In this document: positions 30,001 through 39,000 of the stretch, piece after piece
Layout of the letters: the number at the start of each line of letters is the position of its first letter
Position numbering within the stretch: position 1 is the stretch's first letter
Source of the DNA: Sulfurospirillaceae bacterium
Lineage (GTDB): Bacteria > Campylobacterota > Campylobacteria > Campylobacterales > Sulfurospirillaceae
NCBI GenBank assembly: GCA_033723415.1
Contig: JAWVXD010000004.1
Location: 160,001-224,000, forward strand
Length of the DNA stretch: 64,000 nucleotides
Direction of reading: 5' to 3'
Made by a program: the position numbers

Positions 30001-33000
30001 CTTTTGCGTTTTTGACGACTTTTTTCAGATCTATGACTTTGCGCATATCGACCTTTGTCTTCCATGTGATCTTACCGGGAAGCACGACGGGTTCACCAGG
30101 GATATTGTTGATCCCTTGTTTCCAGGTTGCCAAAACAGCGACTTTGGTATCTTCACGATATATGATAATCGCATGACTATACTTTTTATTTTTGAAGAAT
30201 CCTAAAGTACCGTACTGAAGACGCGCTCCTGTCAAAAAAGCCAATCCGTCAGACCAGCAGGGACTTGTTCCCGAGATACCCCTTAGAACACTTCGATCTA
30301 TGATCCCATCAGGGAAAAGTATCTTGAAAGCCACTTTAGCGCAATTTGCCACATGAGTTGTTCCCTCGCAGTCATGACCATGCCATTTGATCATGTCTTT
30401 TATCGTCACGGCATAAGTTCGCTGATAATATCGTCCTTGAGTACCTTTTGTCGCAAGCATTTCAAATACCGGGGCATACGGCATGGCAGCCATCGGAGCA
30501 TACCAAGTCGGAACTTTGTCAGGTTGAGTCACGCCGGTTTCAATAAAAGTATTGACACCCTCTTTTGGAATCGGCTCCTGACACCAAGATGATGAATATA
30601 TTAACGTTAAGATCATTAACAGTAAAGGAACTAGTTTAGTTTTCATTTTTCACTCCTCCTTTTTAGTTAAAAATTTAAAAACAATATGATCCTAACCACC
30701 TCACTATTTTATAGATACATATATTATATTCCTGCGATACTTAACATGAAATAAATAAAAATGAACGTATATTTGCGCTAGATTTGCTACTTTCTACTCT
30801 CTAACCCATCGTGCGATCTATGTGATGTCGTTTGATGCGAACAGCTCTTTTTTTCTACCAAATCACACTCATCGTAAAATATCCAACAACCCAAGAGGCA
30901 ATGAGGATTTTGATGCTGTTTTTGTATTTGATATAAGGGATAAGTAGGAGTAAAGCAAAAGGGATCAATAAGATCAGATTGACCGTCAAAGAAGAGAAGT
31001 TGATACGCAGAAGATTTTCCGCACCCCAAAAAAACCAAGGTCCTTTGAGTGCATCTACTTTTTGAGTAAGCGCGATGTCAGGAGGCATCAAAAATGCCAA
31101 ATATCCGGCGATACTCAGACCGACTGCAATCGTGAGGTATTCTATCTTTACTTTTAAAGTGTTGACATGTCGAAGAATCGCATACGATAATACGATCGGC
31201 AAGAACACGATGTGCCAGATAAAAAATTTATAATAATACACACTATCGTCTTGAAAAAGTGGCAAAAAGTGACTAAGAAGCGGAGTGTTTTTCATAAGAT
31301 TATATGCCACGTCAGTCGCTGCTAGTGCGCTTTGATCTCCTTTGAGCACAAAACCCGTGAACATCAAGATCACCACGACTAAAAATCCTAAGACAGAATA
31401 ATTCCAAGAAGTGTTTGATATCTTTATCTTTTTTTTCAGTATCTCAAAGGATATATGCAACAGCAATACAAGCGTAAATGCTTCGGAACTAAAGTAATGA
31501 AGTGCTCTAAAAAGATGCCCGTAAGGGATGATAAAGGTCATCTTTTGAACGCTGTCATAGGCAAGTGAGGGATGATACACAAAAGCTACGATCAGACCGC
31601 TTGTCATGCTGACAAAGAACAATCCCATGCTAAGCCATGATACAAATTTAGACATTTTCGACTTTCATCACAATCAGCCTATATAGAGGGTTTTATTTTT
31701 AATTTTGTAGCTAATTGTATCTAAATTCCTCTTAGCAGGTCCTCTGAGTCTCACGCCTTCTATGCTAAATCTACTTTTATGACACGGGCAGTTAAAGACC
31801 TTGTTTTGTTTGTCAAAATTCAAGATACATCCCATGTGCGTGCAATGCGCATCGTAAACCGTGATCTTATCAGCCTCTTTATGGATGAAATATTCTTGTT
31901 TATTGATCTTGGTTATACCCTCACTGATATCTTTAAGCGCTATCGAGATTTTTCTGTTCGGTTTTTCGTCAAAAAAAGTAAATTTGTAGATAGGATAAGA
32001 GAAAGCTCCTGCCACGACAAATGGCAAGAACTTTAAAAATCTTCGTCTCTTATCGAGTAAATAGTTCTCAAACTGGCTTCTAACACCCTTCAAACTGGCT
32101 ACCACCATCATCTGGAACCGGAGTATTGGCTTGGGCAGGAGGTGTTGTATTTTTTGGAGTGTTGACAACCGGAGCATTGAAGTCTTCTACCTCTCCTTGA
32201 GCCACCATTCTCTTGACGATGTCATTGTAATTTGCCCAGGCTTTTTTACTCCAGCTATTTGCCTGCACGGCTTTTTGCGCATAAATACTAGCCAAACGCA
32301 GATTGTTGTTTTGAACCTCGACTCTTGATGCATTTATATAGTGTTCTGCTTTAATATTATCCATTTTGTAGTAATATCTATTTTGAGCAGGCAGATTGAT
32401 ACTTAAAATGCCCACAACAAGAAACAATACAATAGTCAATACGGTCTTTTTTCTCATTTTCCACTCCCCTTAATAATTGATAGTGATATAGTAGACATTC
32501 GGAAGCGTTCCTTTGTCTTCTTTTAGTCTAGTGATAGAAGTAGCATTTTTCATCATCTTTGCGACATTACTATCAGGATCATTTAAATCACCAAAATTTC
32601 TTGATTCGCCTACGCAAGTCGCCACACAAGCAGGGTCCAATCCGTTACTGAGTCTTGGCAGACAGAAAGTACATTTGTCTACGGATGATTTTGTCTCATC
32701 ATAATATCTGGCATCATACGGACAAGCTACCATACAAGCTTTGCATGCGATACACATATCAGAGTCAACCAAAACAATCCCGTCTTCATCTCTCTTAAAA
32801 CTTGCACCGGTAGGGCAAACATCAACACATGGAGCATTGTCGCAGTGATTACATAAAACAGGCAAAAATCTTATACTTGGATTTCCAAAGTTATCCTCAT
32901 CCTCGATCTCCCATACTTTAGTTCTATAAGCATCCTTTAGAGGAGGAACTTCCCAATCTGTTTTACAAGCTGCATAACAAGCATCACAGCCTATACATCT

Positions 33001-36000: not shown

Positions 36001-39000
36001 TTTCTTGCTTAATAGAAAATATACTTCCAACGCCAAGAAAGGCAGCTCTGAAGCATACAATACGACTAACCACCATATTGGTGATGTTATTTTAAATTCC
36101 GTAAAGTAGAGCACAAGTCGTAAAACTTGCAATTTGAAAGGTCCGCCTAAATCCCAAAAAATGATAAAAAATGCAGCGACTAAAGATGATAGCGAAACAA
36201 GAGCAACTTTTTTACTCAATATCTTAAAAGCTTCTATCTTAAAAACATGAGCCAACGCACCTACGACTGCCGTTCCTAAAGTGATCCCAACAAAAAAAGA
36301 ATAACCGATGATGAGTATACCCCAGGGGACTTCTCTACTAACACCGTAAGATGCTTCTTGTCCATGCAAAAACACTTGAACCATGCCGTATATACCGACA
36401 CTTGCCACGAGGCATGATAAGATCAACCAAAGGTTACCTTGTCTCTTATGTACAAATTTTATACTTCTGTGCATACTTGTTCCTTGAGAGAATTAATAAT
36501 TTCTAGAGATATTTCTCCTGCCAAAGGGAATATTTCTAAATCAGTTGCATACTTCAAAGAGTCTACAAATCCCCCTAACCAACCTAAAAATTCTAAAAAT
36601 TCATTTAATTCTGTATATCTTTTTTCTTCAGCTAAAATAGCGACGAATCGCATCATGAAACCAATATGATCAGCCGGTTTTTTCATATTTTGGGCATCAA
36701 ATTGATATCCGCAACTCCTATAAAAATCATCTATTTTTGACAATGTCGCACCTGACATCTTGCCATCGATCCACCAAGAGGCATAAGGGATACATTTTAG
36801 AATTGAGGATTGTATGTTGAAAATCCTTATATACTCTGCTTCTATCTCGTCATAATCCCTAAATTCACAACCTAAATCACGGGATATCATCGAGTTGAAA
36901 TCATCCAATGCTTTGTTCGTAGGATAATCAAAAATATCTGCACATAAGAACAGTGCAGATATTTTTTCTTCTTCCGGTAAAGTTATTTTTTTCATTATCA
37001 TTTATCTAACAAGTGCTCGATTTTTACATCTTGTACATGATATAAAAAACCTATGCATGCTGTTATTTTCTCCTTTTAGTTCTTTCCTTAATACAATTAA
37101 ATTAAAAATTTTTCAGGCTAGAAGCAAACTTAAATCTATCAATATGAAAGGACATTCACTTTTAAAATAATAATCCTAAAATGTTTAAATAGCACTGAAA
37201 ATTTTATAATTCTATCGTAATAAAGTAAATATTTATTTACGAATTTGCCTAAAAAATCATATTTTCATACTTTATTATAATAATAAAAATAAGTCTTTAT
37301 TTTATAATCATAAGTAAAGTAAAAGTATCTTTGATAAGTTTATATTATATATGGACGCAAAATTGATTAGTTTGTATTTTATATATAAAAGTTTGAGTCA
37401 TTTTAAATTGAAGATTTTAAAATGCTCAAACCTATTTGAAATTTGTTGTAGTTAAGTAGTTAAATTGAGAAATCCAAAAGGAAAACATCTACAAGAGAGT
37501 TTTTTTCTATCATTTTCGTATCTTCATCAATACATAGCAAGGCTGCATTATCCAACATGTTATTCAAAATAGCACTGCTTCCTTCTTTTTTGCCATGTAG
37601 ATTAACAAAAAGCTTTCCATCTTTTGTGCTTATGTTACAAGCTGTAAACTCTTTATATTTTGAACGTTTTTTGTAATCTTCTTGAATATATGCTTTTATA
37701 ACCGGTAGATAAAACTCTTGCGCACTGATCTTTCGCAAGAAAGGCAAAACATACAAAAATGCAACAACACTGGAGCTATAAGGAAATCCTGGAAGTGAAA
37801 AGATGTATTTACGTCCGATCCTGACTACCTTTATATGACGCCCAGGTTTTATAAATGCACTATCCACTATATGGATCGGCTGAATGTCACCCAAAACTTC
37901 TTTGACAAAGTCAAAATCCCCGACACTTACTCCACCGGTTGTTATTAAGACATCGGAAGTATTTAAAGCATCAAGCATCACTTTTTTTATCTTGTCTTTA
38001 TCGTCTTTTACTATCTCTAATCTTGAAGTCTGTGCTCCGTGCTCTCTTAAGATCGCTTCTATGGTCACATGATTAGAGCTTCTTATCTGTGAGATATTTT
38101 CTCTCTCCTCACCAAAATCAAGTATCTCACTGCCTGTCGCCAATATAGAGATACGCGGTTTTACGAAAACCGAAACTTGAACATATCCCAGTTCTGCCAA
38201 AACTCCGATCTCGGCATATCTTATCTTTGTGCCTTTCTTTATAAGGATTTCTCCTTTTTTATAGTTTTCTCCGATAGGTCTTGCCGAAAAACCTTTTTCT
38301 ACAGGTGTTACGATATTTATAGTATCCCCTGTTACTTCTACATTTTCTATAGGGATTAGCGTATCGCTTCCCTCACTCATCAATGAACCGGTAAAAGTTT
38401 TAACGCAGGTACCTTTTGTGACAAGATTGCCTTTGTAACTTCCAGCAGGAAGTCTGTCTATAATAGTAAGTTTTTCCAAAGATTGATCAACTGAGCGAAT
38501 CGCATAACCGTCCATGGAGGCTGTTACGTATTCAGGATTGTTAAAAGTTGCAACGATATCCTGAGATAAAATTCTATTTAGTGCTTCAGTTATAAAAACT
38601 TTTTCTGATCCAAGACTAAAGTCTATAGAATTTTCCAGTGCTTTTAGAGTATCTTCGTATTTTTCAAGCATCTTTATCCTCTTTGTCTGCAAGCAATCCG
38701 GCTCCGCTAAGCGGTAGACTTCTGCTCTTTGCATATATTCTTGCTCCATTTTTGAGATCATATTTCCAGATAGGGGCATTTGCTTTAAAATCTTCAACAA
38801 AGTCATTTATAATTCTCAACGCCGCTTTTCGCTGAGGCGACACAACAGCCGATATGTATGAGCTTGTATGATTTGGGACATCACCGAGAGAGTGAGCCAT
38901 AAAGAGTATTGTATTTTCTTGTTTTGCTTTTTCCTGCCACGCATCGAACCAACTGTTTAGTATCGGCTCATATATGTCAAAACTAAGACCGTCTATCCCA

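Follow-up and report, generated by a model that had tools for sequence, protein, structure and literature searches.

Why does a genome with a normal bc complex carry a second Rieske/cytochrome b pair beside a periplasmic molybdoenzyme? This question is raised by the window analysed here, a 64,000-nt stretch of DNA from a Sulfurospirillaceae bacterium (GenBank assembly GCA_033723415.1, contig JAWVXD010000004.1, positions 160,001 to 224,000). Reading of the window translation confirmed seven minus-strand ORFs at 30855-37001, which are conserved in relatives and spaced by -16, -8, +2, +12, -98 and +18 nt. The preliminary description had interpreted them as a seven-gene operon, in which a truncated Rieske/cytochrome b module without a cytochrome partner is dedicated to the molybdoenzyme. 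A second module, distinct from the canonical bc complex, does stand beside a Psr/Phs-like enzyme, but it is neither truncated nor without a cytochrome partner. The seven genes are best read as the upstream part of a conserved respiratory cluster of 9-10 genes, which in relatives runs tandem rhodanese, TorD, PsrC, PsrA, PsrB, EGC-tailed small protein, Rieske protein, compact cytochrome b, 12-haem cytochrome and 8-haem cytochrome. The normal bc complex is encoded elsewhere, as had been reported, by a canonical operon on contig C9 (Rieske protein of 169 aa, cytochrome b of 408 aa with PEWY, and a cytochrome c).

The first four genes, all on the minus strand, belong to the molybdoenzyme. A TorD/DmsD-like maturation chaperone of 180 aa is encoded at 36459..37001 (Pfam Nitrate_red_del 64 bits; NCBIfam DmsD and TorD at 36 and 31 bits, each under its cut-off), and its gene keeps the same position in relatives at 28-61% identity. 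The integral membrane subunit of PsrC/NrfD type (35320..36474, 384 aa, Pfam NrfD 70 bits) is presumably the quinol site and anchor; its orthologues are 42-84% identical, while no solved chain matched its sequence at E<=0.01. The catalytic subunit at 33066..35327 (753 aa) is a Tat-exported Mo-bisPGD protein of the PsrA/PhsA/SrrA lineage, with the Tat motif RRGFLK readable in translation. It matches Thermus PsrA (2VPW) with an E value of 1.8e-147 across residues 8-753, contains Molybdopterin, Molydop_binding and Fe4S4 domains, and scores 494 bits against the NCBIfam PhsA cut-off of 694. Cys59/62/66/94 (FS0), Cys185 and Arg189 are invariant among 22 sequences. The ferredoxin subunit, of PsrB type and with several [4Fe-4S] motifs (32470..33063, 197 aa, Pfam Fer4_11 106 bits), is the most conserved protein of the cluster (62-92% identity), and its NCBIfam scores for TtrB (187 bits) and DsrO (185 bits) are both below cut-off. 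Psr-lineage enzymes are reported to reduce polysulfide, thiosulfate, tetrathionate or selenite, substrates that sequence cannot separate (PMC12949373, PMC7331816).

The fifth gene (32080..32457, minus strand) encodes a small secreted protein of 125 aa, for which no Pfam or NCBIfam family was matched. Judged from orthologue C-termini and the AF2 model, it consists of a signal peptide, a three-helix TPR-like domain (helices at 34-86, pLDDT 85-96) and a disordered Ala/Pro/Ser-rich tail (87-125, pLDDT 48-60) ending in Glu-Gly-Cys-COOH. The C-terminus reads xEGC in 28 of 29 orthologues taken from loci and FVGC in the remaining one; likewise, 27 of the 28 rows of A3 end in EGC, and the odd row ends early. 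Its gene is always found with psrCAB, including in loci that lack Rieske/cytochrome b. Because of this constant company and the EGC-COOH end on a disordered tail, we propose that the protein looks like a swinging-arm cysteine carrier.

The sixth gene (31674..32177, minus strand) encodes a bc-type Rieske [2Fe-2S] protein with one membrane helix (Pfam Rieske 43 bits). The Tat motif RRRFLK and the boxes CTHMGC and CPCHKSRF were read directly in the translation. Translation probably starts at Met23/24 (32108-32111); with Met23, the -98 nt overlap with the preceding gene shrinks to -32. Among solved structures the closest sequences are those of two Rieske-like chains, 9rk4 and 9rk3, presumably two anammox Rieske proteins with potentials above +300 mV. 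The protein carries the S-F signature (S-F or S-Y in all 52 relatives), from which the rule cited by Kao and Hunte (2014) predicts a potential of about +260 mV. Such a Rieske branch would be better matched to acceptors around +100 to +200 mV or higher, for example tetrathionate or selenite.

The seventh gene (30855..31655, minus strand) encodes a compact dihaem cytochrome b of 266 aa (Pfam Cytochrome_B 46 bits; NCBIfam ExtP 73 bits against a cut-off of 290). Although it had been thought to lack the C-terminal half, alignment, AF2 and Foldseek agree on a complete protein of seven helices, including E, F and G and the GPWF motif. The AF2 model resolves helices A-G at pLDDT 95.8 and superposes on long cytochromes b with TMq of 0.68-0.81. 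Across 27 sequences the invariant residues include the previously listed H53, H67, H148 and H163, also read in the translation, as well as G205-P-W-x-F-x-G211, in which the Qo-type motif GPWF occupies the usual PEWY site. The protein belongs to a known but uncharacterised clade, which Kao and Hunte (2014) called GPWY/GPWF. Nearly all invariant residues lie on the periplasmic (Qo) side and no canonical Qi-site residue is conserved among the aligned compact cytochromes b, so that an ordinary Q cycle cannot be taken for granted. Identity to the bc cytochrome b was again 25% over 162 aa.

The cytochrome partner that had seemed to be lacking lies at 23320-26372, shifted 4.5 kb downstream of cytochrome b by three inserted genes. 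At 24585..26372 (minus strand) an ExtM-like membrane-anchored dodecahaem cytochrome c is encoded (595 aa, 12 CXXCH; NCBIfam ExtM 264 bits, cut-off 800; Pfam Cytochrome_C7 and c3 matches). It is 92% identical to the gene directly after cytochrome b in the genome G040, where the operon is syntenic at 61-92% identity as described before, and it is probably the electron partner of the Rieske protein, replacing cytochrome c1. The ExtN-like periplasmic octahaem cytochrome c at 23320..24600 (minus strand, 426 aa, 8 CXXCH; NCBIfam ExtN 90 bits, cut-off 200) has a signal-like N-terminus and a weak DmsE-family decahaem match, and is 84% identical to its G040 orthologue. Where the contig extends 700 nt or more past cytochrome b, 29 of 30 related loci have a same-strand multihaem ORF next, usually overlapping cytochrome b; in the thirtieth, L061, the overlap is about 195 nt. 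The ExtM-like protein carries 12 haems in related loci and its ExtN-like partner 8-10, and in 7 of the 11 long relatives scanned a c7/c3 multihaem domain is joined to cytochrome b in one protein. Since the ExtM/N-like genes belong with cytochrome b in relatives, the operon is a unit of 9-10 genes rather than seven.

The association of the two modules is wider than one genus, to which the molybdoenzyme link had been confined. The compact cytochrome b was again found in 16 of 401 genomes of the order, in three genera; all seven genes are present in 10 of these 16 loci, the other six stopping at contig edges, so every sufficiently long order-level locus (10/10) carries the link. Of the 26 Campylobacterota loci in which 4.5 kb or more is available upstream of cytochrome b, 25 contain psrA and the small gene. 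The cluster, which a few sulfur-associated Campylobacterota carry, reaches contigs labelled Nitratifractor, Hippea and Desulfurellales, and the link between Psr and Rieske/cytochrome b outlasts an inversion in L027, L037 and L042. The modules recombine, and each also occurs alone. L064 and 11 loci labelled Desulfobacterota/Deltaproteobacteria combine Rieske/cytochrome b with ExtM-like cytochromes and a rhodanese without Psr, while L120, L121 and L122 have Psr, the small gene and ExtM/N-like cytochromes without Rieske/cytochrome b. As Psr and the small protein occur in other genera without the pair, the two modules need not touch. Where the pair is missing, the multihaem genes adjoin the small gene instead of vanishing, which argues that these cytochromes serve the Psr side.

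Geobacter offers a precedent. Its extHIJKLMNOPQS cluster is reported to hold ExtM/N, the Rieske protein ExtO and the cytochrome b ExtP (PMC5877670), and ExtKL (MccSep) is described as a polysulfide reductase required for elemental sulfur respiration (PMC13510729). The window likewise combines a Rieske protein, a cytochrome b and ExtM/N-like proteins, but the Ext-family scores given above are far below the equivalog cut-offs, hence the homology is distant. Within the phylum, a Rieske/cytochrome b complex feeding periplasmic molybdoenzymes has a precedent in C. jejuni, where Qcr is reported to be required for Nap and Tor (PMC6195509). We found no description in the literature of the combination of Psr, small protein, Rieske/cytochrome b and multihaem cytochromes.

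On balance, the cluster probably combines two known kinds of module, a reductase of Psr/Phs/Srr type and a Rieske/cytochrome b/multihaem module of the Geobacter Ext type, in a hybrid that respires a periplasmic sulfur or selenium compound. The molybdoenzyme would act on this compound, which the small protein would deliver or take away bound to its C-terminal cysteine as a persulfide-type adduct. The Rieske protein, the seven-helix GPWF cytochrome b and the two multihaem cytochromes in place of cytochrome c1 would form a menaquinol-oxidising complex. Menaquinol may be oxidised at the conserved Qo-type site, with electrons passing from the Rieske centre to the multihaem cytochromes, which would link the complex to chalcogen chemistry in the periplasm (PsrAB, carrier-bound substrate, or both). 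A connection in series, leading from the Rieske protein via the multihaem cytochromes into Psr, could not serve the classical Psr substrate, because the predicted Rieske potential of about +260 mV is far too positive for polysulfide at about -260 mV. PsrC would provide a second, direct quinol route, through which polysulfide or elemental sulfur could be served.

Electrons might also flow in the oxidative direction, although we regard this as unlikely. The Psr-like enzyme, rhodanese and Cys carrier would then oxidise sulfide, polysulfide or thiosulfate, with menaquinone reduced via PsrC and an ordinary Q cycle through Rieske, cytochrome b and multihaem cytochromes delivering electrons to a high-potential periplasmic acceptor chain. 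All steps would be downhill, the predicted mid-to-high-potential Rieske centre fits, and the neighbouring APWY clade has been linked to reverse operation (Kao and Hunte 2014). However, the one tested relative system, Geobacter ExtKL/MccSep, runs reductively, and the cluster encodes no terminal acceptor protein. It is also present on the Hippea/Desulfurellales-labelled contigs, and cultured members of these groups are, to our knowledge, anaerobic sulfur reducers without high-potential acceptors.

We attach still lower probability to a bifurcating or membrane-potential-driven coupling, in which the Qo site sends one menaquinol electron to the high-potential Rieske/multihaem branch and the other, a strongly reducing one, via the b haems to Psr, reducing low-potential polysulfide or elemental sulfur. 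A Rieske centre at the predicted potential together with menaquinone would imply a very low-potential semiquinone, and 9rk4 and 9rk3 are presumably the anammox proteins for which such a scheme was proposed. That cytochrome b is conserved solely on the Qo side and shows no recognisable Qi site is also consistent with it. Two anammox Rieske proteins above +300 mV have been proposed to support a scheme of this kind (PMC12954380), and Geobacter poses the same puzzle of a Rieske/cytochrome b complex inside a sulfur-respiration cluster. However, the scheme is wholly inferential: anaerobes have no evident high-potential sink for the Rieske electron, a path linking the b haems with PsrB is not known, and Psr with the small protein does without cytochrome b in other genera.

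It is similarly improbable that a truncated b6-type module without any c-type cytochrome exchanges electrons directly with PsrAB, as the Rieske subunit of arsenite oxidase does. The tight packing of the seven genes with no cytochrome c gene inside the block, and a weak match of the Rieske protein to the small subunit of arsenite oxidase (40 bits in NCBIfam, E about 3e-9 for AioB chains), would suit such an exchange. It is opposed by the full-length cytochrome b, the ExtM/N-like genes after it in relatives, the fusions in distant relatives and the Psr-free loci that retain Rieske/cytochrome b with multihaem cytochromes. Two co-located and co-regulated respiratory branches without electron exchange (for example, Psr for soluble polysulfide or thiosulfate and the Ext-type branch for another acceptor) have equally poor prospects, for although each module is found without the other, the two halves are divergently transcribed in three loci and the Ext-type module is itself split in the window, adjacency persists in 25 of 26 loci, which span several families and cross one class boundary, and the multihaem pair shifts to a place right behind the small gene when Rieske/cytochrome b is absent.

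The cluster has eroded in the source genome: the rhodanese gene, which most relatives have ahead of torD, is lost without a remnant, and cytochrome b is split from the multihaem genes. Because these 4.5 kb hold unrelated genes, it is unlikely that the whole unit is co-transcribed here. The inserted genes encode an FmdE-like secreted protein (29765-30646, minus strand), a DacA-like carboxypeptidase (28380-29633, plus strand) and an AT-rich pentapeptide-repeat protein (26889-28061, minus strand); tblastn detected none of the three in the related loci. The segment 26889..30646 is a lineage-specific interruption outside the respiratory system, and GC drops to 0.23-0.28 at 26500-28500.

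The seven-gene block put forward in the preliminary description was confirmed as seven open reading frames on the minus strand at 30855-37001, and its interpretation could be supported in part only. The frames are spaced by -16, -8, +2, +12, -98 and +18 nt, and the -98 nt overlap becomes -32 nt if the Rieske gene starts at Met23. According to Pfam and NCBIfam, they encode, in order, a TorD/DmsD-like chaperone (Pfam Nitrate_red_del, 64 bits), an NrfD-type membrane subunit (PsrC; Pfam NrfD, 70 bits), a 753-aa molybdopterin subunit with the Tat signal RRGFLK (PsrA), a ferredoxin subunit with several [4Fe-4S] motifs (PsrB; Pfam Fer4_11, 106 bits), a 125-aa secreted protein (32080-32457, minus strand) that falls into no Pfam or NCBIfam family, a Rieske protein, and a 266-aa cytochrome b recognised by Pfam and NCBIfam models. 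A scan of 29500-37600 for promoters and terminators gave counts not above those of shuffled sequences (34 against 25.5, sd 5.5, and 4 against 4.7, respectively). Directly upstream of the cluster, at 37460-39349, lie moeA, moaE and moaD of molybdenum cofactor synthesis; this adjacency recurs in the closed related genome G040 (locus L020), with a rhodanese gene interposed.

The catalytic subunit had been described as PsrA/PhsA-like, and it does align end-to-end with Thermus thermophilus PsrA (2VPW_A; residues 8-753 against 3-744, E 1.8e-147). C59, C62, C66 and C94 (FS0) as well as C185 were invariant in 22 sequences, and C185 aligned with the Cys of the SLCTAPRE stretch in 2VPW, a position whose Cys we take to be the Mo ligand. 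Full-length similarity, the Tat signal, FS0, C185 and the ferredoxin, NrfD and TorD partners together place the enzyme in the PsrA/PhsA/SrrA lineage. Its best NCBIfam model is PhsA, at 494 bits, under the 694-bit equivalog cut-off. PsrC had no sequence match among solved chains at E<=0.01. Members of the lineage are reported to be mixed in trees and to be distinguishable only through an assay or the content of the operon (PMC12949373), and a Psr homologue of Shewanella ANA-3 reduces both thiosulfate and tetrathionate (PMC12949373, PMC7331816). Like PsrABC, PhsABC and SrrABC, the window cluster combines a Tat-exported, presumably Cys-ligated Mo-bisPGD subunit with a multi-[4Fe-4S] ferredoxin, an NrfD anchor and a TorD-like chaperone. 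It differs in scoring below the PhsA cut-off and in its obligatory small protein ending in Glu-Gly-Cys (EGC), and most carriers found here add a Rieske/cytochrome b/multihaem module; neither of these additions is mentioned in the available text of the published Psr/Phs/Srr operon accounts. Two other frames, Alternative Complex III and arsenite oxidase, were rejected: PsrA has the presumed Mo-ligand Cys and the Tat signal, and the Rieske protein is anchored in the membrane, pairs with a cytochrome b and has its best matches among bc/b6f models. A second Psr/Phs-like catalytic subunit, a 794-codon frame at G000:C2:371397-373748 of the same genome, shares 36% identity with the studied PsrA. Outside the window, a further molybdopterin-enzyme paralogue (G000:C4:126062-127150; a 947-codon open frame when one in-frame TGA is read through) is probably a selenocysteine formate dehydrogenase-type subunit. 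In other organisms, PsrA relatives of 40-45% identity occur in Deferribacteres, and a Hippea strain has homologues of both PsrA and the small protein in its genome.

The Rieske protein shows the features of a bc-type, membrane-anchored member, with the CTHMGC and CPCH boxes, the disulfide cysteines, an RRRFLK motif and a hydrophobic helix. Its best solved sequence relatives are chains 9rk4 and 9rk3, which we take to be the two anammox (Kuenenia) Rieske proteins measured above +300 mV. Box II was found in 52/52 relatives. At the two signature positions that follow CPCH the window protein has S-F, and so do 39 of these relatives; the other 13 have S-Y. By a rule quoted in Kao and Hunte, S-F and S-Y signatures predict about +260 mV or more (PMC4122944), and the two anammox proteins are reported with measured potentials above +300 mV (PMC12954380). 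The window Rieske centre is thus predicted, from its sequence, to lie near +260 mV.

Cytochrome b had been described as truncated, its C-terminal half missing. The AlphaFold2 model (pLDDT 95.8) contradicts this: it contains helices A-D, cd1, cd2, E, an ef helix beginning at GPWF, F and G, hence seven transmembrane helices, and in Foldseek the whole model superposed on long bc1/bcc cytochromes b (TMq 0.68-0.81). As modelled, the protein is compact rather than truncated, a b6-plus-subunit-IV equivalent in a single short chain, and the usual topology rule would place its C-terminus in the periplasm. The four haem ligands in b6 spacing held up, as H53, H67, H148 and H163 on helices B and D were invariant in an alignment of 27 relatives (250-310 aa); the two on helix D are 15 residues apart, the spacing familiar from b6. 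Also invariant were G20, R50, G101, A113 and G205-P206-W207-x-F209-x-G211. A profile-free exhaustive search retrieved 881 representative proteins at E<=1e-3, only 7 of them at E<=1e-30. That a normal bc1 complex is encoded elsewhere was likewise borne out by an operon on contig C9 with a canonical Rieske protein, a 408-aa PEWY cytochrome b and a cytochrome c; the compact and the canonical cytochromes b share 25% identity over 162 residues.

The Qo motif PEWY/PDWY, present as PEWY in the canonical cytochrome b of this genome, is absent from the compact one, and GPWF stands invariant in its place in all 27 sequences, a variant that already has a name, the GPWY/GPWF clade. Nearly all invariant residues lie on the periplasmic (Qo) side; beyond the haem ligands and G20, no cytoplasmic-side conservation was seen in this alignment. 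Because conservation sits on the periplasmic side, a Qo-type site is likely, and no canonical Qi site stands out. Kao and Hunte named a GPWY clade of cytochrome b (motif GPWY or GPWF) that occurs in delta-Proteobacteria as well as in Ignavibacteria and Nitrospinae, one member being fused to a c7 domain, and described it as lacking biochemical characterisation, with Rieske partners predicted to be of mid-plus to high potential (PMC4122944). The window family resembles this clade in its invariant GPWF at the Qo-motif position, in its S-F/S-Y Rieske partners (predicted mid-plus to high potential) and in the c7-type fusions among its relatives. It differs in that Campylobacterota and a molybdoenzyme link are absent from the available text of that paper, whose supplementary tables could differ (PMC4122944). 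Dibrova et al. 2017 also listed cytochrome b subfamilies without assigned function, including G' (large conserved operons) and H (large fusion proteins) (PMC5600118).

As stated before, the compact cytochrome b occurs in 16/401 sampled genomes of the order, in 3/96 genera; a phylum-level sample (4/401 genomes) added no new lineage. Ten of the 16 order-level loci have all seven genes, and the rest are cut short, three of them within psrA, where the contig ends, and three next to the Rieske gene. Scanning one genome per species with an 8-sequence cytochrome b alignment yielded 54 further loci. The molybdoenzyme link, previously confined to one genus, turned out to be wider, since contigs with the labels Campylobacteraceae, Sulfurospirillum, Nitratifractor, Hippea and Desulfurellales show the same gene order. 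At three loci (L027, L037 and L042) Rieske-cytochrome b is divergent from torD-psrCAB-small with the adjacency kept. For counting, a set of 36 distinct Campylobacterota loci was used, the window excluded. psrA and the small gene were present in 25 of the 26 loci in which the sequence upstream of cytochrome b runs to 4.5 kb or more (exception: L064). On the downstream side, a same-strand frame with at least five CXXCH motifs was present in 29 of the 30 loci with at least 700 nt; in the remaining one, L061, the multihaem frame overlaps cytochrome b by about 195 nt. In 26 loci this frame overlaps or abuts cytochrome b (gaps -77 to +138 nt). Complete frames encode 578-612 aa with 12 CXXCH and are followed by a cytochrome with 8-10 haems. 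The best NCBIfam models of these multihaem proteins are ExtM and ExtN, from the Geobacter 'selenite/tellurite reduction operon'.

The window holds the same pair at a distance. An ExtM-like cytochrome with 12 CXXCH (24585-26372; NCBIfam ExtM, 264 bits, cut-off 800) and an ExtN-like cytochrome with 8 CXXCH (23320-24600; NCBIfam ExtN, 90 bits, cut-off 200) lie 4482 nt downstream of cytochrome b, and share 92% and 84% identity with their G040 counterparts, respectively. The earlier statement that cytochrome c1 is missing was hence only half the picture: no c1, f or class I cytochrome c is in the cluster, and 12- and 8-haem c7/c3-type cytochromes hold that position. Three unrelated genes intervene: those of an FmdE-like protein and of a pentapeptide-repeat protein and, on the other strand, that of a DacA-like carboxypeptidase. 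The FmdE-like secreted protein (29765-30646; 293 aa, FmdE Pfam 35 bits, HGHDCEG motif) is encoded just downstream of cytochrome b; its gene was considered as an eighth operon member and rejected, being absent from all related loci. The pentapeptide-repeat protein (26889-28061; 390 aa) lies in DNA of 23-28% GC (26500-28500), against about 38-40% around it. The 4.5-kb wedge formed by these three genes looks like a recent insertion. In G040, too, cytochrome b and the 12-haem gene are separated by an insertion, there of 1.07 kb. Directly after the 8-haem gene, on the same strand, follow cydA and cydB of a cytochrome bd quinol oxidase (20347-22999).

A tandem-rhodanese gene stands immediately upstream of torD in 23 fetched loci, including that of G040. 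Upstream of the window torD there is only a 458-nt spacer with no remnant of it, and contig C6 has a homologue. Because the multihaem pair and the rhodanese gene recur in related loci, the ancestral unit is reconstructed as larger than the window copy, in the order rhodanese - torD - psrC - psrA - psrB - small - Rieske - cytochrome b - 12-haem - 8/10-haem. The seven genes are all present as described, yet they are only part of a larger conserved unit, of which the window genome has an eroded copy.

The modules of this unit also occur apart. PsrA was found in 21/401 genomes of the order, five of which lacked the compact cytochrome b in the order-level search. In three of these five (L120, L121 and L122, two of them closed genomes) the locus reads rhodanese - torD - psrCAB - small - ExtM-like - ExtN-like without Rieske/cytochrome b. 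Conversely, L064 and 11 loci with Desulfobacterota or Deltaproteobacteria labels lack Psr and have the Rieske protein and compact cytochrome b among ExtM-like cytochromes; where the neighbours of such Psr-less loci were scanned, rhodanese and YeeE-type sulfur-transport genes were found beside Rieske/cytochrome b. Among long cytochrome b relatives (368-966 aa), all 11 scanned have the cytochrome b domain and 7 of the 11 have a c7/c3 multihaem domain behind it. Five proteins of about 900 aa (P0040, P0044, P0048, P0081 and P0125) join a compact GPWF-type cytochrome b and a long c7/c3 multihaem domain in single polypeptides, and may correspond to what Dibrova et al. 2017 call subfamily H ('large proteins with cytochrome b domains'). 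In a quick maximum-likelihood tree, the 36 Campylobacterota cytochromes b all fell into one clade (SH-aLRT 100), which was nested in a 55-row group (SH-aLRT 92) together with multihaem-linked sequences labelled Desulfobacterota. L072-L075 and L085 formed a separate clade with a compact cytochrome b and a Rieske protein and no multihaem gene nearby; in L075 a 799-aa TPR protein follows in its stead.

The proposal that the Rieske/cytochrome b module is dedicated to the molybdoenzyme was not supported, in view of the Psr-less loci with multihaem genes and the fusions to multihaem domains. Because of the module recombination, the fusions and the tree, we infer that Rieske/cytochrome b has the multihaem pair rather than the molybdoenzyme as its immediate partner, and that the small protein belongs on the Psr side.

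The small protein forms a family of its own. Terminal Gly-Cys was present in 29/29 orthologues read from the loci (xEGC in 28, FVGC in one), and the sole row lacking the terminal motif in a 28-row alignment was a cut-short sequence. A profile search returned 66 sequence clusters of 114-137 aa, in which no Pfam domain or functional name beyond 'hypothetical protein' was found, apart from one stray RodZ label. In the AlphaFold2 model, a signal helix precedes a three-helix bundle predicted with confidence (residues 34-86), and the last 40 or so residues form a disordered tail; Foldseek gave only weak TPR-like matches (best E 0.25) and nothing at E<=0.001. Complex prediction with PsrA (residues 40-753) and the mature small protein scored 0.02, which is uninformative either way. 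The gene is strictly co-inherited with the Psr-type enzyme and usually also with rhodanese. This co-inheritance, together with a terminal Cys on a flexible periplasmic arm, suggests that the protein carries sulfane sulfur or selenium. Analogues are offered by SoxY and by the Sud protein of Wolinella. SoxYZ likewise has a periplasmic cysteine displayed on the tip of a flexible C-terminal arm; it differs in having GGCGG and an immunoglobulin-like fold, and neither this terminus nor the SoxY fold is found in the small protein, which ends in EGC-COOH and forms a TPR-like three-helix bundle. The small protein would thus be at most an analogue of SoxY, and no relative.

A published counterpart of the multihaem side is extHIJKLMNOPQS of Geobacter sulfurreducens. 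Its products include ExtH, a rhodanese; ExtM and ExtN, both multihaem cytochromes; the Rieske protein ExtO; ExtP, a cytochrome b of 23 kDa; and ExtQ, a membrane protein. Mutation of extI in this cluster impairs the reduction of selenite and tellurite (PMC5877670). It was tied to sulfur respiration only recently, when ExtKL was equated with MccSep, a selenocysteine pentahaem polysulfide reductase needed for elemental sulfur respiration (PMC13510729); the terms 'Rieske', 'cytochrome b' and 'ExtM' do not occur in that paper. In both systems, sulfur or selenium chemistry goes together with a Rieske protein, a cytochrome b and multihaem cytochromes, and the best NCBIfam models here are ExtP, ExtM and ExtN, with ExtH for the rhodanese of the relatives. 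All scores fall well short of the equivalog cut-offs (ExtP 73/290, ExtM 264/800 and ExtN 90/200 bits), so the kinship appears distant and these are best matches only; the Rieske protein had no match to NCBIfam ExtO. The window has a single seven-helix cytochrome b in contrast to the 23-kDa ExtP with separate ExtQ, and its cluster shows no porin or selenocysteine pentahaem MccSep but a molybdoenzyme instead.

Two further systems are comparable in part. In Campylobacter jejuni the periplasmic molybdoenzymes Nap and Tor depend on the Qcr complex, so that acceptors at +130 mV or above are reduced electrogenically (PMC6195509). Here too, judging from the genes, a menaquinol-oxidising Rieske/cytochrome b complex would supply a periplasmic molybdoenzyme. 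However, the C. jejuni complex is a housekeeping QcrABC with its own cytochrome c, encoded elsewhere in that genome, whereas the window has a second complex without c1 beside the reductase in addition to the canonical operon. In Kuenenia, non-canonical Rieske/cytochrome b complexes are described with multihaem and other redox modules and with high measured Rieske potentials (PMC12954380). The combination with multihaem modules is shared; the NAD(P)-linked and HAO-like partners and the metabolism differ, and a molybdoenzyme or Cys carrier is lacking there. No literature was found on a Psr operon with Rieske/cytochrome b or the EGC protein, including the available text of PMC4794192, PMC13209400, PMC6896113, PMC10030654 and PMC11976967, whose supplementary tables could list such genes. 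In the cluster, known modules are newly combined with one another and with an unannotated small protein that has a cysteine tail.

As the most economical reading, the Rieske/cytochrome b/ExtM/ExtN set would be a menaquinol:multihaem-cytochrome oxidoreductase, and the Psr set, with the putative carrier and rhodanese, would perform chalcogen chemistry. The multihaem cytochromes would connect the two sets, because they remain beside Psr in loci that have lost Rieske/cytochrome b. Electrons passing through a Rieske centre of the predicted potential (about +260 mV or more) could not reach polysulfide, because that couple lies at about -260 mV. We rank highest a serial reductive scheme in which the Rieske branch would serve a higher-potential acceptor, e.g. 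tetrathionate or selenite, with PsrC as a parallel quinol route. Both compounds are known substrates of the Psr lineage and fit the selenite link of the Geobacter cluster. A rival is that the system runs oxidatively. Another is a bifurcation-type scheme, which turns on the low-potential electron from the Qo reaction. One menaquinol electron would pass to the high-potential Rieske centre and on to the Ext-type multihaem cytochromes; the other, strongly reducing electron would pass through the b haems to the Psr-type molybdoenzyme, which would work on sulfur held by the terminal Cys of the new swinging-arm protein. An undescribed sulfur-respiring supercomplex of this kind, in which a c1-less GPWF Rieske/cytochrome b splits menaquinol electrons and Psr acts on Cys-carried sulfur, strikes us as a long shot. 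If true, it would solve the long-standing problem of how menaquinol drives reduction of the -260 mV polysulfide couple.

The cluster bears on the electron route from menaquinol to low-potential sulfur acceptors and on the role of the uncharacterised GPWY/GPWF Rieske/cytochrome b complexes, and is relevant to workers on sulfur and selenium respiration and on non-canonical Rieske/cytochrome b complexes. In Campylobacterota, a Rieske/cytochrome b/multihaem module of the same type as in Geobacter ext is combined with a different terminal enzyme, the Psr-type molybdoenzyme. The cluster also reveals a small-protein family whose invariant C-terminal Cys on a flexible tail makes it a candidate periplasmic sulfur/selenium carrier.

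Natural variants without one or the other module provide a ready-made comparative experiment, and single loci deviate in other ways. The G331 bin contains two complete, diverged copies of the whole cluster (L023 on contig C207 and L024 on C145), whose cytochromes b share 57% and 53-55% identity with that of the window; this could be true paralogy or the presence of two strains in one bin. At L067:2093-3269 the psrC match comes in two pieces (query residues 17-132 and 128-380), which may reflect a frameshift or a split gene. At L123:5736-7178, upstream of the rhodanese gene, a member of the window's genus encodes a sensor histidine kinase that has a Tll0287-like domain and may regulate the cluster.
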